Positions 2,912 through 58,481 of a stretch of 64,000 nt of DNA are shown piece by piece. Under the pieces are notes generated by a model that worked only from the letters and a program-made list of their open reading frames with translations, ran no database searches and was not told the origin of the DNA. Position numbers and translations under genes: made by a program. The stretch is from an uncultured bacterium (GTDB lineage: Bacteria; Omnitrophota; Omnitrophia; Omnitrophales; Abzuiibacteriaceae), in NCBI GenBank assembly GCA_964387845.1, contig CAYLXA010000005.1, positions 128,001 through 192,000 of the forward strand, written 5' to 3'. Each line of letters begins with the position of its first letter. The first letter of the stretch is position 1.

Positions 2912-3583
2912 ATGGATAAAAGTGATTTGTTGGACCAATTGGCTCAGCATGGCTATTCATTGATGAAGCCAAAATCAGCCGAGCCGGCCGAAAAACTGCT
3001 GGAGGCATTGCTGAAGCAGGATGATGCGCGTCTTTTGGAGGGCTTTCCGGTGGTGTTGGCCAACGCGTTTGACCAAAAAGACGGCTTGACGTGGGAAAAT
3101 CCTAAATGGAATGCTGAGGAATGGCAGGGAAAAAACAGAAGAAAATTGGTGGCCATGCTGTCTTTTAGTTATTATTTGTTTCGTTTATTTGGATTGGCGG
3201 AGTCTGAAAAGAAAGTTTTAGATTTGGTCAAGAAATTAAAAGGGGATAAAACGCTTCTTCATTTAACCGAATCTTTTGCGGAGTCCAAAGAAGTAGACTT
3301 GGACGGTGTCTCGCTATCAACGGAAAGATTAAAAAGCGCTTTCCGCCAATATGTATTAACGTCGGATCAAGGCGACGAAGTCGAAAAAAAGAAACGCGCG
3401 TTGGAATTAGAGCTGCTGCTTTCCGAACTGTTCAGCACGCGGCAAAAAGAACTGCTTGAGAAGCGGCTTGGTGGGGAGGAATTCACCAAAACAGAGCGTG
3501 AATACTATTACCGCGTCGTCAAAAAACGCTTGAAAGCGCTCGCGAGTGACGAACTTCACCAGATGGCCCGTTCGTTGGTTTAG
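2912..3583 (+). CDS. hypothetical protein (helical, coiled-coil-rich C-terminus)
   Basis: 223 aa ORF translationally coupled to preceding gene. Confidence 0.45.
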   Translation: MDKSDLLDQLAQHGYSLMKPKSAEPAEKLLEALLKQDDARLLEGFPVVLANAFDQKDGLTWENPKWNAEEWQGKNRRKLVAMLSFSYYLFRLFGLAESEKKVLDLVKKLKGDKTLLHLTESFAESKEVDLDGVSLSTERLKSAFRQYVLTSDQGDEVEKKKRALELELLLSELFSTRQKELLEKRLGGEEFTKTEREYYYRVVKKRLKALASDELHQMARSLV

Positions 3584-3595
3584 GGCGGGGGGTGT

Positions 3596-3628
3596 GGCTT
3601 GAAGCTTGAAGCTTGTAGCCTGCAGCCC
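3596..3628. repeat. tandem heptamer array (GCTTGAA GCTTGAA GCTTGTA GCCTGCA), family A intergenic element
   Basis: 7-nt periodicity read directly. Confidence 0.6.
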
Positions 3629-3647
3629 ACAATCCTATCCGCCGAGC

Positions 3648-3667
3648 CTTACCCCTTACCCCTAAGT
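3648..3667. repeat. heptamer half-element (TTACCCC)x2, inverted partner of 9827-9862
   Basis: CCTTACCCCTTACCCCTAAG; its reverse complement TAGGGGTAAGG recurs at 9826. Confidence 0.5.
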
Positions 3668-4014
3668 TTCAATCTGGACACAAAGCTTTTTGAGGCATAA
3701 ATCCTACTTAAATTGTGCCTGTACCTGTCCACCAAAATGATGCCTGGCACCTTTCTGTTAAGGATTCATATGCAACTCCTTTTTCCTGTAACATCAGGAT
3801 ATCAGGTGTTGCACTAGTAACTTGAACTCAAGCAGGTACCGAAGTAGAAATCCACTTCCTATCCGCTATACGTTGTTCGCGAACCAATAAAATAGTTGTT
3901 GAAATATAATATAAAGATTGTAAAATAATTACCTCACGCAAACAGTAAACCCCTCTCACGCCTTCACGCGCAAAATCAAACTAATTTCGTAATGCGTTCA
4001 CAAGAAAGGCGGAT

Positions 4015-4811: not shown

Positions 4812-5570
4812 ATGAGCGATAAATCAAATATCGAATGGACCGACGCGACATGGAATCCGGTAACGGGATGCAATAAAATCAGCCCCGGATGTAAAAACTG
4901 CTACGCCGAAACTTTCGCTGAGCGCTGGCGGGGAATTCCGGGCCATCCCTACGAACAGGGTTTTGACCTCAGATTATGGCCTGAGCGTGTCGGCTTGCCA
5001 TTATCGTGGAAAGAGCCGCGGATGATTTTTGTCAATTCCATGTCTGATCTTTTTCATAAAGATGTTCCGGATGACTTTATAGGGAAAGTATTTGAAACGA
5101 TGCTCAAAGCTAATCAGCATACTTTCCAGGTTCTGACCAAGCGGCCTGAGCGCATGGTTGAATGGACCAAGAAAACATTCGGCAATCAAAAATTACCGCG
5201 TCATATCTGGCTTGGTGTTTCGGTTGAAAACCAGGATTACGTATGGCGAATCATGTATCTTCAGCAAACACCGGCTCAAATCCGTTTTCTTTCGGTTGAG
5301 CCTCTTTTGGGGCCTGTTGTTTTAAAATCTTCAAATTTAAAAGGCATTCATTGGGTGATCGTGGGTGGCGAGAGCGGACACAGAGCCCGTCCTATGAATC
5401 CCGACTGGGCGCGTGATATCCGCAATCAATGCGAAAAATATGGCGTCGCTTTTTTCTTCAAACAATGGGGCGCTTTTAACGCGAAAGGCGAACGCGTTGG
5501 TAAAAAAGCCGCCGGCCGGGTTCTCGACCGCAGAACCTGGAACGAAATGCCAATTACAATCCCCGCCTAG
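4812..5570 (+). CDS. DUF5131 / phage Gp37-Gp68 family three-Cys-motif protein
   Basis: 252 aa; [27 protein letters not shown] signature (C-x6-C-x2-C). Confidence 0.65.
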
Positions 5571-5593
5571 AATCCATCTCTCGTGGTTTAAAC

Positions 5594-5626
5594 GAGAAGC
5601 TTGTAGCCTGTAGCTTGCAGCTTATC
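5594..5626. repeat. tandem heptamer array (GAAGCTT GTAGCCT GTAGCTT GCAGCTT), family A
   Basis: read directly. Confidence 0.55.
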
Positions 5627-5744
5627 ATCATGATATAATTCCTATCGCGACGGCGCCCACATTGACCGCCGCGTGATGGCACTTGCGCCAGCGTTACCGC
5701 AGGTGCCTGCGAACGAAGTGACGCAGAATAAAGCGCAAGTGTCT

Positions 5745-9729: not shown

Positions 9730-9840
9730 ATGTGCGGAAGATATTCATTAACCCTCGATAAAAAGAAACTCCTCGCGGAATTCGCGCCCGAGCCCCGCGC
9801 CCACAAATTTCTTGATTTCCATTATAGGGGTAAGGATTAA
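9730..9840 (+). pseudogene. 5' fragment of a SRAP (YedK/HMCES, DUF159) gene: MCGRYSLTLDKKKLLAEFAPEPRAHKFLDFH then out-of-family tail and stop
   Basis: MCGR N-terminus with catalytic Cys2 is the SRAP hallmark; only ~31 family-like codons. Confidence 0.55.
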
Positions 9841-9862
9841 GGGGTAAGTCGTAAGTTTTAAG
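9827..9862. repeat. heptamer half-element GGGGTAA GGATTAA GGGGTAA GTCGTAA GTTTTAA, inverted partner of 3648-3667
   Basis: 7-nt periodicity; reverse complement of 3648-3667 motif. Confidence 0.5.
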
Positions 9863-9936
9863 TAGAATTATGCTGATAGTCATACCCCATCCCTCCTAAA
9901 CATTCCCCTTGAACATGTTGTAGTTATGTACTACAA

Positions 9937-11953: not shown

Positions 11954-12154
11954 TTGCTGCACACTCACGCTTGATGCGTGAGTGCTAAATCCGTAGAGAA
12001 ACCACAAGTTTCTCACGGATAATACTTGCACATAGGTGCAAGTGCATCCGCGCGGCGTGGTTGACAATCCACACCTAATTCTGTATGATACTTCATCGGT
12101 GCACGAAGTATTGAATTACAGATGTAAAACCCACCGATTAGTTCAATTAATCCA

Positions 12155-12280
12155 AGTAAAAATTCAAAATCTAAATATCAAAATTCAAAACAATTATTAA
12201 ATTCCAAATTCAAAACGTTTTGAAATTTAATATTTGTAATTTGAATTTGTTTTATGTTTTGATATTTGAATTTTGAAATT
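12155..12280. repeat. long AT-rich imperfect palindrome (CAAAAT/ATTTTG-rich arms centred on CAAAACGTTTTG) immediately upstream of guaB-like RBS
   Basis: read directly; ~60-nt arms. Confidence 0.55.
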
Positions 12281-12297
12281 ATATTTGAGGAGCAAAA

Positions 12298-13458: not shown

Positions 13459-13468
13459 CTTAATATTC

Positions 13469-13543
13469 GGGCTTCATGCTGCATGCTACAAGTTACAAGC
13501 TGCAGGTTTGAAGCTTGGAGCCTGAAGCCTGTAGCTTTGAAAC
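13469..13543. repeat. heptamer-periodic palindromic element (CATGCTG CATGCTA CAAGTTA CAAGCTG / TTTGAAG CTTGGAG CCTGAAG CCTGTAG), family A
   Basis: read directly. Confidence 0.6.
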
Positions 13544-13544
13544 T

Positions 13545-15101
13545 ATGAACCAAGACGTCTGTTTAATTCTCGATTTTGGCTCGCAATACACCCAATTGAT
13601 TGCACGCCGCGTCCGCGAGAAAAAAGTTTTTTCGGCCATTCATCCTTACCACATTCCGTTCAGTAAAATCCTGGAAATCAATCCCAAAGCCATTATCCTC
13701 TCCGGTTCGCCGTCCAATGTCTACGCCAAACACGCACCGATTTCGGATAAACGGATTTTCTCACTCGGTGTTCCGATCCTGGGGATTTGTTACGGCCTGC
13801 AGCTCACCGCGCACGTCCTTAAAGGGCGCGTCAAGAAAGTTAAGCACCGCGAATATGGTTACGCCGATCTCGTGATCAACAAGCCGGGTGAATTGTTTGC
13901 GGGGCTTCCCAAAAAGTTTCACTGCTGGATGAGCCACGGCGATCAAGTCACCAAACTTCCGCAAGGATTTGAACGGCTCGCGCACACACGAACTTCAAGT
14001 GTCGCGAGTTTTGGAAACACAAAAGCCAAAATTTACGGCGTTCAGTTTCACCCGGAAGTCGTTCACACGCCGCTCGGCCACAAAATCATCGCGAACTTCC
14101 TATTCAAAGTCGCAAAATTCCGCGGCAATTGGTCGCCCAAGTCATTTATTAATGAAACCATCAAAGATATCCGCCGCAAAGTCGGAAAGGACAAAGTCGT
14201 TCTCGGGCTTTCGGGCGGCGTGGATTCATCCGTGGCCGGTGTGTTGATTCACAAAGCGATCAAGCATCAGCTGACCTGTATTTTCGTGGACAACGGTTTG
14301 CTCAGAAGAGGCGAGCGACGGCAAGTCGAAGAAGAATTCCGGAAACATTTTCATATGAACCTGCGTGTGATCGATGCGACGAATGAATTTCTGAATGCGC
14401 TGCGCGGCGTGACGGACCCCGAGAAAAAACGCAAAATCATCGGCGGACTCTTCATCAAGGTTTTCGAAAGGGAAGCCAAAAAACTCGGTAAAGTGAAGTT
14501 TCTGGCGCAAGGCACGCTTTATCCCGATGTGGTGGAATCGGTTTCGGCTCATGGCGGCCCGACGGCCGTGATCAAATCACATCACAACGTGGGTGGTCTT
14601 CCGAAGCGGATGAAATTTCAATTGCTCGAGCCCTTGCGTGATTTATTCAAAGACGAAGTCCGCGCGGTCGGCAGAACGCTTGGCATTAAATCGCAGTTTG
14701 TGGATCGCCACCCGTTTCCGGGCCCGGGTCTTGCGGTCAGGATTCTAGGCGAAATCACGCGCGAGCGGCTTTATTTGGTGCGCGAAGCCAATTGGATCAT
14801 GCTCGAAGAATTGATGAAGAATAAAGACAAAAACGGCAGATATTACGACCAGGTTTGGCAGGCCTTTGCAGTTTTGCTGCCGGTTAAAAGTGTCGGCGTT
14901 ATGGGCGATGAGAGAACGTATCAATACGTGACTTCTTTACGCGCGGTGGTCTCGGAAGACGGCATGACGGCCGACTGGGCGCGGCTTCCGGATTGGCTCC
15001 TCGCCAAGATTTCAAGCCGCATCATAAATGAGGTGAACGGCATCAACCGCGTGTGCTACGATATCAGCTCGAAGCCGCCCGCTACCATCGAATGGGAATA
15101 A
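13545..15101 (+). CDS. guaA: glutamine-hydrolysing GMP synthase
   Basis: GATase LILDFGSQYTQLIARRVRE, ATP-PPase SGGVDSSV. Confidence 0.9.
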   Translation: MNQDVCLILDFGSQYTQLIARRVREKKVFSAIHPYHIPFSKILEINPKAIILSGSPSNVYAKHAPISDKRIFSLGVPILGICYGLQLTAHVLKGRVKKVKHREYGYADLVINKPGELFAGLPKKFHCWMSHGDQVTKLPQGFERLAHTRTSSVASFGNTKAKIYGVQFHPEVVHTPLGHKIIANFLFKVAKFRGNWSPKSFINETIKDIRRKVGKDKVVLGLSGGVDSSVAGVLIHKAIKHQLTCIFVDNGLLRRGERRQVEEEFRKHFHMNLRVIDATNEFLNALRGVTDPEKKRKIIGGLFIKVFEREAKKLGKVKFLAQGTLYPDVVESVSAHGGPTAVIKSHHNVGGLPKRMKFQLLEPLRDLFKDEVRAVGRTLGIKSQFVDRHPFPGPGLAVRILGEITRERLYLVREANWIMLEELMKNKDKNGRYYDQVWQAFAVLLPVKSVGVMGDERTYQYVTSLRAVVSEDGMTADWARLPDWLLAKISSRIINEVNGINRVCYDISSKPPATIEWE

Positions 15102-15231
15102 AGTTTAGCGGTTAGCGAATAGCGTTTAGCGCATAGAAAAACAAACGAGACCATTTTTGTGAGAACTCATTTTTATTCTTTTCATTTTGTTTTTTCAGTT
15201 ATACGCTATCCGCTAGACGCTATACGCTAAT
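15102..15231. repeat. heptamer hairpin element, family B: TTTAGCG GTTAGCG AATAGCG TTTAGCG ...65-nt spacer... TATACGC TATCCGC TAGACGC TATACGC
   Basis: read directly. Confidence 0.6.
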
Positions 15232-15235
15232 AGTT

Positions 15236-33988: not shown

Positions 33989-35932
33989 ATGTCCATTACG
34001 CAATCAACCACGGCCAAACTCCGAATTATTAGTTTCGAAAGCCGTCTGTCCTCAACCATGACAGAGCTGATCCACAAAGCCGGCCATGCGCCTATCGCGG
34101 CGCCGGCACTGCAGGAAATCCCGCTCGAGAAAAATCCCGAAGCGTTTCAATTAGGGGAGCGGCTCCTCAATCACGAAATTGATTTCATGATCTTTCTAAC
34201 GGGTGTCGGCACAAAAGCGCTCTTTGAAACCTTGAGAACCCGTTACAACATGAAACAAATCATTGCGGCCTTGAATCAAACCATCATTGTTGCGCGAGGC
34301 CCGAAGCCGGTTCAGGTTTTGCAAGATTACGGAATCATGGTTTCGGTCCTGGTGCCGGAGCCCAATACCTGGCGCGACATTTTGGAAGTTTTAGACTCAG
34401 ACGAGCATAGCATTTCTCTGATGAAAAGGACTGTCGCGGTCCAAGAATACGGAGAGGAAAATCCGCAGCTCATCGCCGGATTGGTGGAGCGCGGCGCGCG
34501 CGTAATCCGGGTTCCCGTCTACCGGTGGGCGCTGCCGGATGATACCAAGCCGCTAAAAAATGCGATTCGGACCATCATCGAACACAACGCGGACGCGGTG
34601 CTCTTCACAAACTCGGTGCAGGTCAATCATTTATTTCGGCTGGCCTCGGAAATAGGCCTTGAAAGGCATTTAAAACAGGCCTTTGCCAAAATGGTGATCG
34701 CTTCCGTCGGCCCTCATTGTTCTCAAGCGATTGTTGAGCATGGGCTTTCCGTTGATATCCAGCCCGAGACGCCGAACATGGAGTCGCTCGTCTTGGAAGT
34801 GTCAAAACGCGCGAAGGCCATTTGGGATGAGAAGCAATTACATGAAAGCAAACTCATGGATTCCGGCATCCGAATGGAATCAGAAAGAGTCCAAAAAAAG
34901 GAATTGGTGGAAAGCGTATTTTTAAAAGCGTGCCGGCTTGAAAAAACATCTCACACACCGGTTTGGCTGATGCGCCAAGCAGGGCGCTACATGAAAGAAT
35001 ACCGGCAGCTGCGTGAAAAAATGCCCTTTCTGGAACTTTGCAAAAACCCATCACTGTGTGCAGAGGTTACAATTCATGCCCAGGAAACCATCGGAGCGGA
35101 CGCTGCTATTATTTTTTCGGATATCCTGCTTTTGGTACAGCCGTTTGGCCTGGGCCTTGAGTATTCGCGGGAAGACGGGCCCGTGATTGACAATGTTATT
35201 CACCGCGGATCGCGCATCGATGAACTTCCCGAGATCGAACCGGCCGATTCGCTCGGATTTGTATATGAAGCGATCCGAAAAACGCGCGAGAATCTGCAGT
35301 CCAACATTCCGCTGATCGGGTTTGCCGGAGCACCGTTTACGCTGGCGTCTTACATGATTGAAGGCGGCTCATCAAAAGATTTTAGGCGCACAAAGCTATT
35401 CATGTATTCCGATGAAGGCCAGTGGCGCGCACTGATGGAAAAATTGGCACGCGCCGTATCGAAACATCTCAAGGCGCAAATTGAGGCCGGTGCTCAGGCG
35501 GTTCAGCTTTTTGACAGCTGGGTCGGTTGTTTAGGCCCCGGCGATTATAAAAAATATGTACAGCCGTACTCCAAACAGGTATTTGATTCGCTAGAAGGGC
35601 TCGCGCCGACCATTCACTTTGGAACCAACACCGGAAATTTGTTGGAGCTCATGAAAGAGGCGGGCGGTGATGTAATCGGCGTCGATTTTCGGATCACGTT
35701 GGACCAGGCTTGGCGAAGAGTGGGATATTCAAAAGCAGTGCAAGGAAATTTGGATCCGCTGGTGCTGCAGTCATCGATTCCTTATATTAATCAGCGTGCA
35801 CAGGAAATTATCAAGCAGGCCTCCGGACGCCCAGGGCACATTTTCAATTTGGGCCACGGTGTTTTGCCGGATACGCCTGTTGAAAATGTGATCGCGTTGG
35901 TGGATATGGTCCACGAACTCAGTGGTAAGTGA
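33989..35932 (+). CDS. hemE: bifunctional uroporphyrinogen-III synthase (HemD) / uroporphyrinogen decarboxylase (HemE) fusion
   Basis: N-terminal ~250 aa HemD-like; C-terminal HemE with VWLMRQAGRYMKEYR...IIFSDIL; stop codon lies inside heptamer repeat. Confidence 0.85.
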   Translation: MSITQSTTAKLRIISFESRLSSTMTELIHKAGHAPIAAPALQEIPLEKNPEAFQLGERLLNHEIDFMIFLTGVGTKALFETLRTRYNMKQIIAALNQTIIVARGPKPVQVLQDYGIMVSVLVPEPNTWRDILEVLDSDEHSISLMKRTVAVQEYGEENPQLIAGLVERGARVIRVPVYRWALPDDTKPLKNAIRTIIEHNADAVLFTNSVQVNHLFRLASEIGLERHLKQAFAKMVIASVGPHCSQAIVEHGLSVDIQPETPNMESLVLEVSKRAKAIWDEKQLHESKLMDSGIRMESERVQKKELVESVFLKACRLEKTSHTPVWLMRQAGRYMKEYRQLREKMPFLELCKNPSLCAEVTIHAQETIGADAAIIFSDILLLVQPFGLGLEYSREDGPVIDNVIHRGSRIDELPEIEPADSLGFVYEAIRKTRENLQSNIPLIGFAGAPFTLASYMIEGGSSKDFRRTKLFMYSDEGQWRALMEKLARAVSKHLKAQIEAGAQAVQLFDSWVGCLGPGDYKKYVQPYSKQVFDSLEGLAPTIHFGTNTGNLLELMKEAGGDVIGVDFRITLDQAWRRVGYSKAVQGNLDPLVLQSSIPYINQRAQEIIKQASGRPGHIFNLGHGVLPDTPVENVIALVDMVHELSGK

Positions 35933-36025
35933 TAAGTGGTAAGTGGTAAGTTTGGATGAACCAGTCAAACTTGATTAAAATTTTATTTTTACTTATCACT
36001 TACAACTTACAACTTACAACTTAAA
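35930..36025. repeat. heptamer hairpin element, family D: GTGGTAA GTGATAA GTGGTAA GTGGTAA ... TTATCAC TTACAAC TTACAAC TTACAAC
   Basis: read directly; supplies hemDE codons SGK + TGA. Confidence 0.65.
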
Positions 36026-36035
36026 ACTGGAAAAT

Positions 36036-37478
36036 ATGCCTAAAATCGCGATTATCGGCGGCGGAATATCAGGGCTTTCCTGCGCGTACCGTTTGCTCGA
36101 ACTTGCAAAAGAATTCGGAAAAGAGCTTGAAGTCCGGATTTTTGAACGTGGTGACCGGTTGGGCGGTACGATCGAGACTGAAATCCGCGATGGTTTTGTT
36201 CTGGAGAAAGGCCCTGATTCTTTTATCTCCGAAAAACCAGCCGCGGTCGAGCTTGCAAAAAAACTTCGCATTGAAAACTTCCTGATCAATACCCGGAGCG
36301 AAAACCGGAAAAGTTTTATCCTGAAAAACGGAAAACTTTTTCCCGTTCCGCCCGGTTTTTATTTAATCGCACCCACGCAGGCATTGGAGTTTATGAAGTC
36401 TCCGCTCTTGTCATTTCCCGCCCGGTGCCGCGCCATGGCGGAGATTTTTATTCCAAAGCGCGTCAGCGAAAATGACGAAAGCATCGGTTCGTTTGTCCGC
36501 AGGCGGTTCGGCGATGAAATGCTTGAACGGATCGGACAGCCGATGATCGGCGGAATTTACACCGGCGATCCGGACCGCTTAAGTCTTCTGTCCACCATGC
36601 CGAGATTTCGTGATTTGGAAAAAAAATCCGGAAGCGTGATTAAAGGAATGTTGGCCGCAATGTCGCGAACAGAAACCGGTGTTTCAGAAGCGAGCGGCCC
36701 GCGTTACAGTTTGTTTTTGTCGTTTAAAAACGGAATGGAAACTCTGGTCAGCTCGCTCATGAGCCAGATTCCGTACAATTTTGTGCAGTTTGAATCCAAG
36801 CTGACCGAGATTGATTACAGTTTTGAAAAACAGGCGTGGTTTGTTGAAATGCAAAACGGGGAGGTGTATGAAGCAGATGCAGTTTGTGTGGCGGCATCGG
36901 CTCGGACGGCTGCGCAGCTTTTTGCGAATTCTTTTCCCGATTTGTCGCGCAAGCTCAACCGGATCCGGTTTGAATCCGTGGCGACCATCAATTTTGCATT
37001 CAAACGGGACCAAATCCGTCATCTGCTCGATGGATTCGGTTTTGTCGTACCCAAAATCGAGAAAAGGCCTCTTGTGGCCTGTTCCTTCAGTTCTCAGAAG
37101 TTTGAAGGCCGCGCACCCAATGACTGCGTTTTGCTTCGGGCGTTTACGGGCGGCGCGTTCGGGCGCGAATATTATCAAATGGAAGATAAAGATCTGATTA
37201 GCGCGGTTGCCCGTGATTTGGCAGAACTGCTCGGTATTCAAGGGGATGCGCTCTTTTATGATTTGGCCCGGTATCCAAATGCGATGGTTCAGTATGAAGT
37301 AGGGCATCTTGAGTTGGTCGGATCGATTCAATCAGATATCAACGAGATGAAGGGACTTTTTCTAACCGGTTCTTCATTCAAAGGGGTCGGAATTCCGGAC
37401 TGTATTGCGGATGCTTTTAAGCAGGCGGAAGCCATGTTTGCGCTTTTGAGCCAGAAATGCGAAAGCATCAAGTCTTGA
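36036..37478 (+). CDS. hemY: protoporphyrinogen/coproporphyrinogen oxidase (HemY/CgoX family, FAD-dependent)
   Basis: IAIIGGGISGLSCAY dinucleotide-binding motif, 480 aa. Confidence 0.8.
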   Translation: MPKIAIIGGGISGLSCAYRLLELAKEFGKELEVRIFERGDRLGGTIETEIRDGFVLEKGPDSFISEKPAAVELAKKLRIENFLINTRSENRKSFILKNGKLFPVPPGFYLIAPTQALEFMKSPLLSFPARCRAMAEIFIPKRVSENDESIGSFVRRRFGDEMLERIGQPMIGGIYTGDPDRLSLLSTMPRFRDLEKKSGSVIKGMLAAMSRTETGVSEASGPRYSLFLSFKNGMETLVSSLMSQIPYNFVQFESKLTEIDYSFEKQAWFVEMQNGEVYEADAVCVAASARTAAQLFANSFPDLSRKLNRIRFESVATINFAFKRDQIRHLLDGFGFVVPKIEKRPLVACSFSSQKFEGRAPNDCVLLRAFTGGAFGREYYQMEDKDLISAVARDLAELLGIQGDALFYDLARYPNAMVQYEVGHLELVGSIQSDINEMKGLFLTGSSFKGVGIPDCIADAFKQAEAMFALLSQKCESIKS

Positions 37479-42675: not shown

Positions 42676-43047
42676 ATGTTAAATAATCTACAGCTCAAAC
42701 TCATTTTCTCTAAAACCAAAGGCCATTGTCATTTTTGTGGCGACAAACTACGGTTTGATCGATACGGAAACCGAAGCGCAAAATCCTTAGATGGTATGTG
42801 GGAATTGGATCATATAATTCAGAGGGGCAAAGGCGGAAAGGATGAAATTAATAATTTTCTTCCGGCTTGCGCACGTTGTAATCAGCTCAGATGGCATCGC
42901 AAGGGAAAGCAGCTTCGAGAATTGATTTTCTTAGGTTTAATAGCAAAAGTAGAAATTAAAAAACATTCGCCTACAGGTAAACAAATTCTCTTGCTTAGGA
43001 AGAAGCGAATAGCTTCCAACCAAAAGCGCAGACGACTTTTTTTATAG
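42676..43047 (+). CDS. HNH endonuclease
   Basis: HCHFCGDK...ELDHIIQRGKGG...NFLPACARCNQLRWHR. Confidence 0.75.
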   Translation: MLNNLQLKLIFSKTKGHCHFCGDKLRFDRYGNRSAKSLDGMWELDHIIQRGKGGKDEINNFLPACARCNQLRWHRKGKQLRELIFLGLIAKVEIKKHSPTGKQILLLRKKRIASNQKRRRLFL

Positions 43048-43268: not shown

Positions 43269-44108
43269 ATGACGAAATTTTTTATGTTTACTATTAAAGC
43301 ACCGGATTTTAATTTAGAGGCGACTCTGGAATCCGGACAGGTGTTCGGGTTCCAGAAATCACCGGATGGATTTTACGAGGGCACGATTGACGGCAGAGAG
43401 GTCCGGTTGCGTCAAGATTTAAACTTTCTTCAGGTTCAAAATCATTCGCAAAAAAGCACGGAGCCAAAAGTCCGGCACTTTTTTGATTTAGATCGCGATT
43501 TAAATCCTGTTTACGAAATTTTGAACAAAGAAGAACCCCTCGCCAAAATCCTCCAAAAATTTCGAGGGCTTCGCCTGATCCGGCAAAATTCATGGGAAGC
43601 GCTTGCATGCTTTATCATTTCTTCCAACAACAATGTGAAGCGCATTCAGGGAATTTGGAAAAACCTGACATCACGTTTGAGTGCAGACGGTTTTTCGTTT
43701 CCGAAGCCGTTTGAAATTGCTAAGAGCCATGAGCGGATGCTGAGAGAACTTGGGCTTGGCTACCGTGCACCGTTTTTATTTCGTTCCGCACAATTTTTGG
43801 CGCACAATCCCGTAAGTCTTGATCTCATTCGTGAAGCGGAATATTCGGAAGCACGCCACAGGCTGCTTCAATTTCCCGGCATCGGCCCCAAAGTCGCGGA
43901 TTGCGCGCTCCTGTACGGATTTCAAAAATATGAAGCGTTTCCTGTTGATGTTTGGATTTTGCGTGTGATGCGGAAATTATACTTCCGAAATCGGAAGGTT
44001 TCGGAAGAAAAAATTCACGGTTTTGGCCAAAAGCGCTGGGGAAATCTTGCGGGCTATGTGCAGCAATATTTATTTCACGGTGCCCGCAGCGGTCTTTTTG
44101 ATCTTTAA
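43269..44108 (+). CDS. ogg: HhH-GPD DNA glycosylase, Ogg-type (8-oxoguanine DNA glycosylase/lyase)
   Basis: [17 protein letters not shown] HhH-GPD motif with catalytic Lys/Asp context. Confidence 0.75.
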
Positions 44109-47655: not shown

Positions 47656-47689
47656 CTCTTTTGTGTTATACTCTTTCGGTTCTTTGAGA

Positions 47690-48125
47690 AAGGCTTTTCT
47701 CGGTAGATGATCGCCTGCTGCATTTTGCAGTGGGAGGAAAGTCCGAACTTCACAGGGCAAGGCGCCCCGTAATACGGGGTGGGGCGGGAGCAAATCCCGC
47801 TTTAAGGAAAGTGCCACAGAGATTATACATCCGAAGTGGTAAGTGATAAGTGGTAGGTGGTAAATAGTAAATAAAGGAGTTATTGGCTTCTCATCAACTT
47901 AGCACTTACAACTTATCACTTACTACTGGATAAAGGTGAAACGGTGGCGTAAGAGACCACCGTGTATCGGCGTAAGCTGGTATGCAAGGTAAACCCCGCC
48001 TGAAGAAAGATGAAGATCGCGCAAGTTGACTTGTTCAGCTCAGGGCGGCCCGTTCTGCGCGCGTCTAACAAGATCGAATGACCCGAGGTTGCAAAATCCG
48101 GGCTAGACAGATGATCATCGCTTCT
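47690..48125 (+). ncRNA. rnpB: RNase P RNA (bacterial type A) with heptamer-repeat hairpin in P12 position
   Basis: P4 GGAGGAAAGUCCG; GGUGAAACGGUGGCGUAAGAGACCACC; AAUCCGGGCUAGACAG 3' P4 strand; boundaries approximate. Confidence 0.8.
47836..47928. repeat. family D heptamer hairpin (GTGGTAA GTGATAA GTGGTAG GTGGTAA ... CTTACAA CTTATCA CTTACTA) inside rnpB
   Basis: read directly. Confidence 0.65.
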
Positions 48126-48127
48126 TC

Positions 48128-48212
48128 AGTTGTAAGTGATAAGTGATAAGTGGTAAGTTGTAAGTTTTAAGAATTCATAAACTTATCACTTAAAACTTAC
48201 CACTTACAACTG
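48128..48212. repeat. family D heptamer hairpin immediately 3' of rnpB
   Basis: GTTGTAA GTGATAA GTGATAA GTGGTAA GTTGTAA ... rc arm. Confidence 0.65.
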
Positions 48213-48259
48213 GGGAAGAAACAGAATTCGGCTTATGCCGAGAAAAGCCTCTCTTTTTT

Positions 48260-48344
48260 AGTTTTAAGTGATAAGCGTTAAGGGATAAGTTAAAAACTGC
48301 ATATTTTTGTTTTTCTTACCTCTTACAACTTATCACTTACCACC
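48260..48344. repeat. family D heptamer hairpin (degenerate)
   Basis: GTTTTAA GTGATAA GCGTTAA GGGATAA ... CTTACCT CTTACAA CTTATCA CTTACCA. Confidence 0.6.
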
Positions 48345-48450
48345 GAATCCACTTAATTTCCTCTGCATAGTTATCAGATTATCCTCCTTGACAAATCGTA
48401 TATGTAATGTATTATTTAATATATAGAATGTATTACATTAAGGAGACCCT

Positions 48451-48684
48451 ATGAAACGAAAAGAAAAGCGAGAGGGCTTGACCTCCGTTCAAATCCGACC
48501 TCAAATTGCCCGCATGATGGAGAAGTTTGCGCGCCGGGGCCTCAGTAAGAGCGAGTTAATCAATGAAGCCCTCAGGCAATATTTGATCGAGAAAGAATTT
48601 CAGGAACTGCGCAATGAACTGCTTCCTTACGCCCAGGCGAAGGGTATTTATACCGATGAAGATGTCGAGCGGCTTTTGAAATGA
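48451..48684 (+). CDS. ribbon-helix-helix (CopG-like) antitoxin
   Basis: 77 aa; palindromic AT operators upstream (48368-48440). Confidence 0.7.
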   Translation: MKRKEKREGLTSVQIRPQIARMMEKFARRGLSKSELINEALRQYLIEKEFQELRNELLPYAQAKGIYTDEDVERLLK

Positions 48685-49076
48685 AAGTTGTTTTTGACAC
48701 CAATGTCTTAATCTCAGGTTTTCTGACAACCACCGGCCTTTGCGAGCGCGCACTGAACATCGGGCTCAAACGCCATGCGGTCATTTTATCTGAGTTTATT
48801 CTGAAGGAATTTGGTGAGAAATTGCACCATAAATTAGAAGTGCCGTTAGAGAAGGTTTTGCGTACAGTTACTTTTTTAAAGAAAAGAACGCTGGTTTTGG
48901 ACATTCCGAACAACCCAAAAATTGAGTTTTCAGATAAGAAAGATATCCCCATCTTGAGTCTGATAGAAGCCGCGAAGCCAAATTATTTGGTCACAGGAGA
49001 TAAGCGTTTGCTTGGCTTAAAGAAGTTTGGCCCAACCCTCATCATCTCCGCCAGGGAAGGAGTAGAGGTTCTTTAA
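48681..49076 (+). CDS. PIN-domain toxin (VapC-like)
   Basis: VVFDTNVLISG...YLVTGDKRLL acidic tetrad pattern; ATGA overlap. Confidence 0.8.
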   Translation: MKVVFDTNVLISGFLTTTGLCERALNIGLKRHAVILSEFILKEFGEKLHHKLEVPLEKVLRTVTFLKKRTLVLDIPNNPKIEFSDKKDIPILSLIEAAKPNYLVTGDKRLLGLKKFGPTLIISAREGVEVL

Positions 49077-49077
49077 A

Positions 49078-49180
49078 GCAAGCGTCAAGCCACCGGCTAC
49101 AGGCCTCAAGCTTAAAAGGCTGAAGCTTAGGGCTTATAGCTTGAAGCCTGCAGCCTGCGGCTAGTAGCTTGACTACAGAT
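49078..49180. repeat. family A heptamer-periodic palindromic element
   Basis: ...CAAGCTT AAAAGGC TGAAGCT TAGGGCT TATAGCT TGAAGCC TGCAGCC TGCGGCT AGTAGCT... Confidence 0.55.
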
Positions 49181-49359
49181 AATCCCCAAAAAACCTGATT
49201 TTCACGAAAAACCACGGTTTTAAGAAGATTTTCCCTATAGAAATTCACTTTTCAAAAGCCCGCAAGTAAGTCATCCTGGACTTTTGCTAGCCCTTGAATT
49301 CCCCCCCCATGTGTTAATTTTCCTTTGAAGTAAGTCAAATCAAAAGGAGAAATAAAAAA

Positions 49360-49976: not shown

Positions 49977-50043
49977 AATCAACTAGTTTTTCTTGACATT
50001 CGGATCCGTCTCGTGTAATATTCCATAACTTTAGCGCAATTGA

Positions 50044-50138
50044 AACCCTTTTAATCTGGTTCTGCGAAACCAGGAAAGGCACGAAAATGAAAACCGACTC
50101 TTACTGTACCCGTCTAGAATCCACAGGCGGGTTTTTTT
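50044..50138 (+). promoter_or_regulatory. pyr leader: PyrR-binding hairpin (CUUUUAAUCUGG...CCAGGAAAGGC) followed by attenuator terminator (CCCGUCU..AGGCGGG + U7)
   Basis: similarity to PyrR binding-loop consensus (CUUUnAGUCCAGAGAGGCU) and a 7-bp stem + U-tract. Confidence 0.55.
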
Positions 50139-50162
50139 ATGCCTCTTCCCGAATAACGAGCC

Positions 50163-50236
50163 ACAAGCTTCAGGCTGCAAGCTCCAAGCTTAAGGCTTTA
50201 AGCATGAAGCCTGGGGCCTGCAGCTTGAAGCCGCTA
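50163..50236. repeat. family A heptamer-periodic palindromic element between pyr leader and pyrR
   Basis: CAAGCTT CAGGCTG CAAGCTC CAAGCTT AAGGCTT ... CCTGCAG CTTGAAG. Confidence 0.55.
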
Positions 50237-50247
50237 TCGAGGTTCAC

Positions 50248-50784
50248 ATGAGCAAAATCATCATGAATAACGATGAAATGAATCGTGCGATTACGCGTAT
50301 TGCACATGAAATCCTCGAAAAAAATCGAAACGACAAAAGTCTCGCGATTGTGGGGATCCGCACCGGAGGCGCATTTTTGGCCGAGCGGCTCCTTAAGAAA
50401 ATAAAAGAAATCTCCAAAGAAGACATCCCCTCAGGCGTTCTCGATATCACACTTTACCGCGATGATTTGTCTGAGGTCGGCCCGCAGCCCGATGTGAAAG
50501 AAACCAAAATCGATTTTGATGTCACGGAGAAGATAATCGTAGTTGTGGATGACGTTCTCTTCACGGGCCGGACGGTGAAATGTGCTTTGGACGGCATCAT
50601 TGATTACGGCAGGCCGAAAGCGATTCAGCTCGCGGTTTTGATCGACCGCGGCCACCGGGAGCTTCCTATTAAGCCGGATTTTGTCGGCAAAAACATTCCA
50701 ACTTCCAATAACGAAGAAGTCAGAGTCTATTTCACCGAAGAGCACGGCAAAGACGAAGTGCTGGTCGAGGAGGTCAAACCATGA
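50248..50784 (+). CDS. pyrR: bifunctional pyr operon regulator / uracil phosphoribosyltransferase PyrR
   Basis: [14 protein letters not shown]...[10 protein letters not shown]...[10 protein letters not shown]. Confidence 0.9.
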
Positions 50785-51744: not shown

Positions 51745-53022
51745 ATGCACCTACTTATTCGAAACGCACGCATCCTGGATCCAAAAAATAAAATTGACGA
51801 TACGCTCGACATTTTGACGCACAACCGAAAAATTCTCGAAATCAAAAAGAAAATCGACGCGCAGGAAGGCGCCATTGAAGTCGATGCCAAAGGCCTCGTG
51901 GCTGTGCCGGGATTTATTGATATGCACGTTCACTTCCGCGAACCGGGTTTTGAGCAAAAGGAAACCATTTCAACCGGCGGCATGGCTGCTTTAAAAGGCG
52001 GAATTGTCGCAACGGTGACGATGCCAAATACTAATCCGCCGTGTGACCACCAAAGCGTTATTGATAACATTATCCGGAAAGCGAAAGAACTTCCGTTGAA
52101 TGTGTTTCCCTCAGGAACTTTGAGTAAGAATCGCGAAGGCAAGGAACTTTCCGAAATGACCGACTTGAAACGCGCAGGCGCCATTGCCGTCACGGATGAC
52201 GGAAGCTGGCTGTATGATTCGCTCCTCATGCGCCGCGCGATGGAATATGCGGGCATGCTGGGACTTCTCGTGATCACACACGCCGAAGATCACCGGCTGA
52301 GCACGGGCGGCGTCATGAATGAAAGTTTATCATCGACCAAACTCGGCCTTCAGGGAACACCGAACGCGGCAGAAGACATCGCGGTTTTGCGGGATGTGGA
52401 ACTTTGCCGGCTGACGCGCTCACCGCTTCACATTGCACATTTATCGACGAAAGGTGCCGTCGAAATCGTCCGCCGTGCAAAAGCAGAGGGGCTTCCGGTG
52501 ACGGCTGAAGTGACGCCGCACCATTTGGCACTCACCGATGAATCAATCAAGGATTACAACACGGATTTCAAAATGAATCCGCCGCTTCGGACCGAAGAAG
52601 ACCGGCAGGCAATTTTAAAGGGACTCAAAGATGGAACCATCGATACGATCGCAACGGATCACGCGCCGCATACGGAAGAAGAAAAAATGGCAGAGTTTCA
52701 GGATGCGCCGGTTGGTGTGATCGGCCTCGAGACTTCCGCATCGGTTGTGCTGACCGAGCTTTATCACAAGAAAGTGCTAACGCTTGAGGAAATCATCCGG
52801 AAAATGTCCGTTCGCCCTGCGGAAATCTTAAAATTACCTTCGGGATTCGGCGAAATCAAAGTCGGAACATCGCCCAACATCGCGTTCCTTAATCTGGACC
52901 AAGAATGGGATGTTAAAAAAGAAGGTTTTGTTTCAAAATCAAAGAATTCATGTTTTATCGGCCGCAAACTGAAAGGCCGTGTGGTGATGACAATTTGTGA
53001 AGGAAGGCTGTGGAAATGGTAA
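51745..53022 (+). CDS. pyrC: dihydroorotase (multifunctional-complex type)
   Basis: GFIDMHVHFREPG metal-binding motif; start at internal ATG 51745. Confidence 0.85.
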   Translation: MHLLIRNARILDPKNKIDDTLDILTHNRKILEIKKKIDAQEGAIEVDAKGLVAVPGFIDMHVHFREPGFEQKETISTGGMAALKGGIVATVTMPNTNPPCDHQSVIDNIIRKAKELPLNVFPSGTLSKNREGKELSEMTDLKRAGAIAVTDDGSWLYDSLLMRRAMEYAGMLGLLVITHAEDHRLSTGGVMNESLSSTKLGLQGTPNAAEDIAVLRDVELCRLTRSPLHIAHLSTKGAVEIVRRAKAEGLPVTAEVTPHHLALTDESIKDYNTDFKMNPPLRTEEDRQAILKGLKDGTIDTIATDHAPHTEEEKMAEFQDAPVGVIGLETSASVVLTELYHKKVLTLEEIIRKMSVRPAEILKLPSGFGEIKVGTSPNIAFLNLDQEWDVKKEGFVSKSKNSCFIGRKLKGRVVMTICEGRLWKW

Positions 53023-53023
53023 T

Positions 53024-53107
53024 TTTAGCGTATAGCGTTCAGCGGATAGCGTATAGGAAAGACTATTCAATTTGTTCCTACCCGCTATACGCTAAACGCT
53101 ATCCGCC
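53024..53107. repeat. family B heptamer hairpin (TTTAGCG TATAGCG TTCAGCG GATAGCG TATAGG ... CCGCTAT ACGCTAA ACGCTAT CCGCC)
   Basis: read directly. Confidence 0.65.
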
Positions 53108-53116
53108 GACCGGAGA

Positions 53117-54250
53117 TTGTTCATGAAAGCAATTCTTGCATTAGAAGACGGTCTGACGTTCGAAGGTGAAAGTTTTGGCGCGCGCGGCGAAACATTCGGC
53201 GAAGTGGTGTTTAATACCTCGCTTTCAGGATATCAAGAAATCCTGACGGATCCTTCCTATGCAGGGCAGCTCGTGACCATGACTTATCCGCACATCGGTA
53301 ATTACGGTATCAATAAAGCCGACGTCGAGTCTGCAAAACCTCACGCTGATGGCTTCATCGTCAAGGAAGTCAGCCCGCTTGTCAGCAATTGGCGATCTGA
53401 AATGACGCTGGATGAATATTTAAAAGATTCAAAGATTGTCGGGATCCAGGGAATTGACACGCGAAAACTCGTCAAACATTTACGCGATAATGGCGCGAAA
53501 AAAGGGATTATTTCAACGGAAGATTTGGACGTGAAGCGGCTTGTGAAGCGCGCCAAAGATTCCGAAAGTATTGTCGGTGTGGATTTGGTGAAGAAAGTGA
53601 CTTGCGCGAAGAAATATCAATTTACAGAGAGAATCCCCGAGGAATTTGAATGGCCGCAATTTGAAAAGCGAAAAATCAAAAAGCAATACTCGCTTGTTTG
53701 CGTGGATAGCGGTATTAAACACAACATTTTACGCAAACTCAATCAGCATGGTTTTAAATTAACGGTGGTGCCGGCGTCGACACCTTCGTCAGAAATTCTG
53801 GCGCTCAAGCCGGACGGCATCTTTCTCTCAAACGGGCCCGGCGATCCGGAGCCGGTGACGTATTTGGTGGAAACCGTTCGGAATCTCATCGGCAAAAAAC
53901 CAATTTTCGGGATTTGTCTCGGGCATCAAATCTTGGGGCTCGCACTCGGCGGAAAAACATACAAACTCAAATTCGGCCACCGGGGCGGAAATCATCCGGT
54001 GATGGATTTGAAAACCAACAAAGTTGAAATTACCTCACAGAATCACGGATTTTGCGTGGATTTGGAATCGCTTCCCAGAGACACAGTAGCAACCCATACC
54101 AATCTGAATGACAAAACCAACGAAGGCTTCCGGCACAAAAAATATCCGGTGTTTTCGGTGCAATATCACCCGGAAAATTCACCCGGGCCGCACGACAGCG
54201 ATTATTTGTTCCGAAGGTTTTACGAACTTGTTGAAAAAGGAAAGTGGTAA
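53117..54250 (+). CDS. carA: carbamoyl-phosphate synthase small (glutaminase) subunit
   Basis: CPSase_sm N-domain + GATase GICLGHQ. Confidence 0.9.
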
Positions 54251-54253
54251 ATT

Positions 54254-54333
54254 TGGTATCTAGTATCTGGTATCTAGTATCTCGCTAAAGAATTTTCGCT
54301 TGCCAGATATTAGATACGAGATACCAGATACGC
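54254..54333. repeat. family C heptamer hairpin (GGTATCT AGTATCT GGTATCT AGTATCT ... AGATATT AGATACG AGATACC AGATACG)
   Basis: read directly; overlaps the 5' extension of the ORF-track carB call, supporting carB start at 54348. Confidence 0.65.
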
Positions 54334-54347
54334 GAAAGATTAGAAGT

Positions 54348-58413: not shown

Positions 58414-58415
58414 TC

Positions 58416-58472
58416 TGCTACAAGCTGCAAGCCGCAGGCTTCATGCCTGGAGCTTGAAGCCTGTAGCCTGAA
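58416..58472. repeat. family A heptamer-periodic palindromic element
   Basis: CTGCTA CAAGCTG CAAGCCG CAGGCTT CATGCCT GGAGCTT GAAGCCT GTAGCCT GAAGC. Confidence 0.55.
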
Positions 58473-58481
58473 GCAAAGAAT

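Follow-up and report, generated by a model that had tools for sequence, protein, structure and literature searches.

We analyzed a 64,000-nucleotide (nt) stretch of DNA from an uncultured bacterium of the Omnitrophota lineage (contig CAYLXA010000005.1, positions 128,001 to 192,000; hereafter the window), in which rnpB, the gene for RNase P RNA, lies downstream of a gene for an LptF/LptG permease whose closest relatives all come from Candidatus Omnitrophota metagenome-assembled genomes (MAGs). An Rfam scan covering the whole window gave a single strong match other than those to tRNA, namely to bacterial RNase P RNA class A (RF00010) at 47695–48250 of the forward strand. The match scores 183.6 bits (E 1e-57), which exceeds the gathering score of 100 by 84 bits, and it uses all 367 model positions (1–367); the identification of rnpB in an initial annotation, made from the sequence alone, is thereby borne out. 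The covariance-model match gives the gene a length of 556 nt. The features of the locus, with helices placed by the RF00010 alignment, are as follows:

47667–47672, forward strand: likely −10 hexamer of rnpB, TATACT after TGT, by direct reading of the sequence
47695–48250, forward strand: rnpB, class-A RNase P RNA, with helix P1 formed by GGCUUUUCUCGG paired with CCGAGAAAAGCC
47732–47748, forward strand: region of the P4 5′ strand, GGGAGGAAAGUCCGAAC, in which CCGAA (47743–47747) complements UUCGG (48227–48231)
47829–47931, forward strand: helix P12, a 4-bp base (AUCC, 47829–47832; GGAU, 47928–47931) topped by a heptamer-periodic hairpin
47833–47927, forward strand: insert 1, with 5′ arm GTGGTAA GTGATAA GTGGTAG GTGGTAA and 3′ arm TTAGCAC TTACAAC TTATCAC TTACTAC
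48082–48102, forward strand: P18 hairpin with GCAA tetraloop (model positions 284–303)
48113–48119, forward strand: P2 3′ strand, GAUCAUC (model positions 314–320)
48121–48218, forward strand: insert 2, about 98 nt, in the P19 slot between the P2 and P4 3′ strands (model positions 335/336)
48221–48236, forward strand: true P4 3′ strand, ACAGAAUUCGGCUUAU (model positions 337–352, high posterior probability)
48254–48259, forward strand: T-run directly after the P1 3′ strand, by direct reading, with a putative function
48260–48343, forward strand: element 3, a heptamer palindrome of the GTGRTAA family outside the RNA, weaker than both internal copies

The core helices and conserved joining regions are intact, and the class-A helices P13/P14, P18 (with its GNRA loop) and P15–P17 all align with high posterior probability. 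The P4 pseudoknot of the family, in which the 5′ strand GAGGAAAGUCCG... pairs with the 3′ strand ACAGAA..CGGCUUA, is present; the exact complement CCGAA/UUCGG represents two compensatory pair changes relative to the Rfam consensus CCGGg/CCCGG. The real P4 3′ strand falls in the block AACAGAAUUCGGCUUAU (48220–48236); at 48221–48236 it shows no variation in any relative compared, and AAUUCGG is also present in relatives having GUCCGAAC. Helix P18 reads CCCGAGGUU-GCAA-AAUCCGGG. The three conserved sequence blocks quoted in the initial annotation were all found where it had placed them, but AAUCCGGGCUAGACAG, which it had taken for the P4 3′ strand, is the P18 3′ strand followed by J18/2. The gene end had been assumed near 48127, about 120 nt short of the true end near 48250. 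Because of the misassigned P4 strand, internal and external repeats had also been miscounted: of two further copies said to follow the 3′ end, the one at 48260–48343 does lie outside the RNA, whereas the one said to begin at 48128 lies within it, in the P19 slot. The corrected anatomy is two internal inserts, in P12 and P19, and one external copy.

The rnpB alignment has only two large inserts, one at the apex of P12 and the other separating the P2 and P4 3′ strands, where the standard nomenclature locates P19. The insert of about 95 nt in P12 falls between model positions 136 and 137, that is, at the apex of the helix, flanked by J11/12 (CACAGAGAUUAUA) and J12/13–P13 (AAAGGUGAAACGGUGG); the alignment thus agrees with the original placement of a repeat hairpin in P12. 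Its center is nonrepetitive, and it folds at −43.6 kcal/mol (z −8.8; z-scores of the elements were computed against dinucleotide shuffles). Insert 2 rises from a nonperiodic base of 9 bp, CUUCUUCAG paired with CUGGGGAAG, into the units GTTGTAA GTGATAA GTGATAA GTGGTAA GTTGTAA GTTTTAA; it contains an inverted repeat (I1) of 39 nt that is 85% complementary, and folds at −48.7 kcal/mol (z −10.8). Element 3 folds at −23.6 kcal/mol (z −4.2). Each rnpB insert has the potential to form at least 17–18 uninterrupted bp within a near-perfect duplex of 35–40 bp.

The unit of the elements at the rnpB locus is G-N-N-N-T-A-A, with three variable positions. A search for GTGRTAAGTGRTAA with at most two mismatches returned 28 matches compared with 0.52 expected, a count reached by none of 100 shuffles, which substantiates the GTGRTAA periodicity noted initially. 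In each of the three elements, Tandem Repeats Finder (TRF) found both arms to contain period-7 arrays, and an inverted-repeat finder returned arms of 29–39 nt that are 77–86% complementary.

Relatives with and without the inserts

Exact-match protein searches with the window LptF gave no hit, and relatives were collected through LptF homologs. In 13 related Omnitrophota contigs or lineages (referred to by handles such as L030), rnpB immediately follows lptF. A metagenome scan with a clade-specific core motif returned one locus, L034. In 13 further lineages, the length of the orthologous rnpB ranges from 364 to 637 nt. Inserts of the same architecture occupy both P12 and P19 in three of these relatives. 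L030 (LptF 89% identical to that of the window) carries GGGRTAA-periodic hairpins at the two sites (−46.7 and −48.6 kcal/mol, z −7.8 for both). L001 (LptF 60%) combines a P12 of GCGTTAA-type units with a P19 of GGTGACA-type units (−41.6 and −41.5 kcal/mol), and L040 (LptF 64%) has GCGTT/GAGGTAA and TAGTGAT units at the P12 and P19 sites (−47.5 and −45.3 kcal/mol). The L001 inserts are identical, base for base, in L035 and L036, which are assemblies from other data sets.

Other close relatives are free of the inserts. In L034, whose LptF is 90% identical to that of the window and 93% identical to that of L030, P12 is short (CAGCCCGUUUAGCAAUAAGCGAGC) and P19 is a hairpin of 28 nt. L031 (LptF 88%) also has a short P12; its contig ends at position 1877, 1 nt past the P2 3′ strand, which is the P19 insertion point; a repeat hairpin may have broken the assembly there. 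Ordinary short helices are present in L032, L033, L037, L039, L013, L002, L003, L005, L006 and L007. The P12 insert is absent from L031, L034, L032, L033, L037 and L039, and the P19 slot holds a short hairpin in L034, L032, L013, L002 and L006 and only 4 nt in L033, L037 and L039. Covariance-model scores follow the same division, with 183 bits for the window versus 229–233 bits for the insert-free L032, L033 and L034. The P12 base AUCC/GGAU shared by the window, L030 and L001 was considered as a possible terminus of the element and rejected: a single compensatory pair separates it from the ACCC/GGGU of L033, which is too weak a signal.

To compare core and inserts, rnpB was split at best-match anchors. 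Core identity among the window, L030, L031 and L034 is 84–86%, in a star-like pattern. When the window is compared with L030, identity is 63% and 71% for the inserts and 86% for the core. In a neighbor-joining tree of LptF, insert-bearing lineages are interspersed with insert-free ones (L030 with L034, L040 with L037, and L001 with L033/L039); there have therefore been at least three gains, or many losses. The base of the short P12 (CAGCC...GAGCAAUG) is common to L031, L034 and the outgroup L032, and since it is shared with an outgroup, the short form is probably ancestral in the clade to which L032 is the outgroup.

Heptamer palindromes also occur around rnpB in relatives. In L034, they lie immediately upstream (2671–2755) and downstream (about 3230–3295) of the gene, with none inside it. 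L034 and L040 (1324–1400; LptF 64% identical) have in common a palindrome of GTTTAAT/GTCTTAT units between the lptF stop codon and the rnpB promoter. A degenerate copy occupies the position of element 3 in L030, and palindromes with other units lie downstream of rnpB in L013 and L034. The stretch behind rnpB in L013 (2486–2600) holds first a strong terminator-like hairpin that has a U-run and after it a heptamer palindrome of TTAGTGG/TTAGTAG units, which resemble the unit of the L040 P19 insert. Expansions of rnpB that are not periodic were observed as well: 129 nt in the P13/P14 region of L001 (about 5441–5569), 76–80 nt in the P13 loop of L003 and L007; in L002, P3 is longer by about 33 nt and P15–17 by about 56 nt.

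The ends of the gene were compared in the same contigs. Hexamers resembling a −10 element lie at an equal offset upstream of the conserved leader GTTCTTTGA in L030 (TATAAT), L001 (TGATATAAT) and L034 (TGTTATAAT). A consensus scan of the region for sigma-70 promoters and terminators gave nothing above shuffled expectation for rnpB and did not list TATACT. A T-rich run also stands behind P1 in L001, L032, L033 and L034, and the 3′ end of the window rnpB probably lies at the T-run at 48254–48259.

A dispersed family of heptamer-periodic palindromes

The periodicity of the rnpB inserts recurs along the window, which contains 28 period-7 arrays compared with four to eight arrays for periods of 5, 6, 8 and 9 nt, and zero to six in shuffles. 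About 11 of the arrays pair into clean hairpins with four to six units per arm and a unique AT-rich center. At least five unrelated units are found in the window: GTGRTAA, GCTTGAA/GCCTGTA, TAGCGNT, GGTATCT and AAAATTC-like. Elements outside the rnpB locus include the following:

35921–36028, forward strand: fourth GTGRTAA-type palindrome, in the gap between open reading frames (ORFs) 33989–35932 and 36036–37478; −39.4 kcal/mol, z −5.4
12150–12297: heptamer palindrome
13459–13545: heptamer palindrome
15102–15235: heptamer palindrome
35915–36035: the fourth GTGRTAA-type palindrome again, with wider limits
50150–50247: heptamer palindrome
53023–53116: heptamer palindrome
54245–54340: heptamer palindrome
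58414–58481: heptamer palindrome
3584–3680: weaker period-7 array
5571–5672: weaker period-7 array
9815–9936: weaker period-7 array
49100–49200: weaker period-7 array

Because the fourth GTGRTAA-type palindrome lies between ORFs, the family is not specific to rnpB. Twelve of 15 elements examined are located wholly in gaps between codirectional ORFs, and the other three run into no more than the end of an ORF that was called crudely. The gap is often filled exactly, as by the palindrome at 53023–53116, between ORFs that end at 53022 and start at 53117. With about one palindrome every 4–5 kb, a genome may hold hundreds. Tandem or palindromic AT-rich repeats at 822–878 and 2394–2464, with periods of 30 and 22 nt (TRF), are unrelated to the heptamer family.

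We compared three orthologous intergenic junctions between the window and L030. At pyrC/carA, the stop and start codons overlap in L030 (ATGGTAA), whereas a block of 94 nt that includes a TAGCGNT palindrome stands there in the window. This block (window 53023–53119 versus L030 5225–5240) supplies the ribosome-binding site and start codon of carA (GGAGATTGTTCATG), and carA is one codon longer in L030 than in the window. At carA/carB, L030 has TAATG, and in the window a GGTATCT palindrome of about 86 nt separates TAA from ATG. Upstream of pyrR, the start codon in the window is separated from a conserved attenuator-like terminator by a palindrome of about 68 nt, which is absent in L030; the same site in L001 holds unrelated nonperiodic sequence. 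These junctions show the intergenic copies to be recent insertions. No target duplication was found against the L030 empty sites at pyrC/carA or carA/carB, two cases only. Membership in a family of transposable elements of the miniature inverted-repeat type (MITEs) or repetitive extragenic palindromic (REP) sequences was considered and rejected: there are at least five unrelated units, which have only the period and palindromy in common, and the two junctions lack target duplication. Concerted evolution, under which copies in one genome would resemble each other more than they do their orthologs, was also considered and is not proposed, since the unit spectra overlap: GNNNTAA units occur in both the window and L030, and L030 also contains GTGGTAA.

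Several other features were noted in the window. A PyrR-binding attenuator-like element lies upstream of pyrR at 50043–50141 (RF00515; the score of 36.9 bits falls short of the gathering score, 54, and a search of 321 nt gave E 0.001) and is conserved in L030, L001 and L039; the heptamer palindrome, here at 50167–50220, is wedged between the T-run of the attenuator terminator and the pyrR ATG at 50248. Between rnpB and pyrR is a toxin–antitoxin-like pair of ribbon–helix–helix and PIN proteins (48451–48684 and 48681–49076), together with a near-consensus promoter, TTGACA-16-TATTAT, at 48388–48415. The pair is present at the corresponding spot in L032 and absent in L030, L001, L033, L037 and L039. 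A small stand-alone HNH endonuclease ORF (42676–43047; PF01844, E 2e-8) adjoins a gene for an OGG-type DNA glycosylase (43269–44108).

Origin of the inserts and comparison with known systems

We consider it likely that the locus encodes a functional class-A RNase P RNA in a Candidatus Omnitrophota bacterium and that the repeats in it are passengers, tolerated in the two permissive helices P12 and P19. Members of a genome-wide family of intergenic palindromes with 7-nt units would have settled at the solvent-exposed tips of two peripheral helices: P12, part of the specificity domain, and P19, part of the catalytic domain, where it stacks on P2. A third copy lies just beyond the rnpB 3′ end. Because the elements are palindromes, each insert would be transcribed as a hairpin of about 35–40 bp that merely lengthens its host helix, and the ribozyme would tolerate the inserts because the core pairings P1, P2, P4 and P18 and the joining regions are left untouched. 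Both helices vary in other RNase P RNAs. The length of P19 varies, the helix stacks on P2 and its losses have been numerous, and expansions are often found at the P12 tip (PMC12974513); P3, P12, P15–17 and P19 are unalignable among cyanobacterial and plastid RNAs (PMC4264200). The initial annotation had left two alternatives, that the repeats colonized a tolerant helix or that the ribozyme uses them structurally. Of these, colonization is the better supported, by the dispersed family, the clean intergenic insertions, the insert-free close relatives and the palindromes that flank rnpB in L034 without entering it. We infer that the inserts are neutral and would be kept in the mature RNA. The heptamer repeats themselves may arise by polymerase slippage, a published hypothesis proposed for the abundance of heptamers (PMC4692102).

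Some of our observations weigh against tolerated passengers and were set against the possibility that the extensions are adaptive, that is, that two rigid rods help the RNA to fold or make it more stable, serve as a binding site for a protein, or hold the ribonucleoprotein in place or set its spacing, and are selected together. Wherever both sites are readable, P12 and P19 carry inserts together (four lineages) or not at all, and this counts against passengers because pure chance insertion predicts some single-site cases. L034 has the repeat family around rnpB and not within it, so that presence of the family in a genome is insufficient for insertion. The internal copies are among the best paired and most stable of the family, with z-scores in this comparison of −7.1 and −8.6 versus −3.3 to −7.7 for the other clean hairpins. 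The helices are kept despite turnover of the units, and P12 pairing is preserved through six two-sided changes between the window and L030. G·U relative to A·C pairs stand at 22:5 in the rnpB inserts and 27:16 elsewhere, a difference that is not significant and is biased by refolding; the overall ratios, 49:21 for the transcribed strand and 39:26 for the other strand after refolding, carry the same bias. Neither fixed termini nor target duplication were seen, and "insertion" here denotes an outcome, with no known mechanism. The paired occurrence, strong pairing and two-sided changes fit some selection on the helices. Nevertheless, we regard adaptive extensions as unlikely. L034 does without both inserts although its LptF is 93% identical to that of L030, in L031, where the P19 site is unassembled, P12 is of the usual short form, and the units, lengths and apical sequences are not conserved. 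Because all intergenic copies are palindromic too, the compensation in P12 need not reflect selection on the ribozyme, and co-occurrence of the inserts can come from a shared genome-level cause, such as bursts of repeat activity.

The long duplexes might instead behave like the intervening sequences of 23S rRNA, being cut by RNase III or another double-strand nuclease without rejoining. The working ribozyme would then consist of two or three pieces held together by the core helices, and the DNA would have the same origin as proposed above for passengers. At least 17–18 uninterrupted bp in a duplex of 35–40 bp falls within the size range of RNase III substrates, and the inserts take the place of short capped helices and have a scattered distribution among close relatives, as do the rRNA intervening sequences of Salmonella and Leptospira. 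P12 and P19 are moreover peripheral, so the core could stay undisturbed if their tips were broken. Against such cleavage, the P12 repeat extensions of cyanobacteria, described by Vioque in 1997, are reportedly retained in the RNA, and periodic mismatches and G·U pairs could lower cutting; we judge it improbable. An artefact, in which repeats were misjoined into rnpB during assembly or the gene is a decaying pseudogene, is very hard to credit. The sequences are assembled from metagenomes, and the break of the L031 contig exactly at the P19 insertion point indicates that such repeats disturb assembly. However, the L001 inserts are exactly reproduced in L035 and L036, four lineages from different studies carry inserts at the identical two structural positions, the core helices and joining regions are intact in a full-length match well above threshold, and the core is much more conserved than the inserts. 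A more far-reaching proposal, which we hold to be doubtful, is that in several Omnitrophota lineages the two rods of 35–40 bp in P12 and P19 were gained together and are not inert, being either excised to leave a three-piece ribozyme or co-selected as a module, with palindromes whose unit is reinvented at each locus as the raw material. Such reinvention would point to local generation rather than copy-and-paste transposition.

The settling of dispersed heptamer repeats inside an essential ribozyme is now seen in a second, very distant phylum, and the known case in P12 is extended from one permissive site to two. Relatives with and without the inserts constitute a natural experiment on where large helical additions are tolerated and whether they are kept or excised, and can also reveal the speed at which heptamer-periodic palindromes turn over. 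Inserts of this kind depress covariance-model scores and may break metagenome contigs, as L031 suggests, so that rnpB annotation and checks of MAG completeness can suffer. The palindrome family, with its many units and precise placement between stop and start codons, is poorly described; it and the recurrent paired extensions of P12 and P19 are the points most worth attention.

Among known systems, the intervening sequences of bacterial 23S rRNA occupy helices 25 and 45 and are excised by RNase III. Like them, the rnpB inserts stand as lengthened hairpins where an essential structural RNA otherwise has short helix tips, and they occur sporadically among close relatives. Excision and fragmentation define the rRNA elements and would be hypothetical for the rnpB inserts; the rRNA elements also lack a heptamer period. 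REP sequences and bacterial interspersed mosaic elements (BIMEs), MITEs and the Rickettsia palindromic elements are small palindromes in operon gaps, the Rickettsia elements being tolerated inside genes. The window palindromes are similarly small and fill intergenic gaps in operons, but the known families keep a conserved sequence, and MITEs also have terminal repeats and target duplications. The window palindromes share architecture only, namely a 7-nt period, two complementary arms and a unique AT-rich center.

Intergenic heptamer arrays in convergent (inverted) pairs have been described with the units GGGAATC in Xanthomonas and GGGGAYT in Nostoc (PMC4692102). In these as in the window, heptamer tandems are concentrated between genes, are often head-to-head and capable of forming stem–loops, and vary in length and sequence between close relatives while often keeping their position. 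The Xanthomonas and Nostoc arrays, however, have one dominant G-rich, quadruplex-prone unit, in contrast to the at least five unrelated units in the 64 kb of the window, none of them quadruplex-like, and they were not reported inside a structural RNA gene (PMC4692102). The heptamer units of Xanthomonas, Nostoc and Beggiatoa are also absent from the window. Lineage-specific expansions of RNase P RNA affect the identical two variable, expandable helices, P12 and P19 (PMC12974513, PMC4264200). They differ from the present case in that the added material here is identifiable as copies of a dispersed genomic repeat, and in that turnover has occurred between organisms whose LptF proteins are about 90% identical.

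Literature searches returned nothing for Omnitrophica together with RNase P, and none of the papers covered by them describes repeat inserts at P19. Heptamers of the short tandemly repeated repetitive (STRR) class are said to lie within helix P12 of the RNase P RNA of heterocyst-forming cyanobacteria; the STRR1–3 units are CCCCAGT/CCCCAAT, TTGGTCA and CAACAGT. No tandem dimers of these units, in any rotation and on either strand, were found in the window. As in the cyanobacterial case, tandem 7-nt units of a dispersed family are located inside rnpB and lengthen P12 as a helix, and units and lengths vary between related strains while the ribozyme core is untouched. Unlike that case, the host belongs to the Omnitrophota, as judged by the closest LptF loci, a second insert at P19 always accompanies that at P12, and many different units coexist in the genome. 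The Omnitrophota inserts thus appear to work as the STRR heptamers in P12 do, without belonging to the STRR family.

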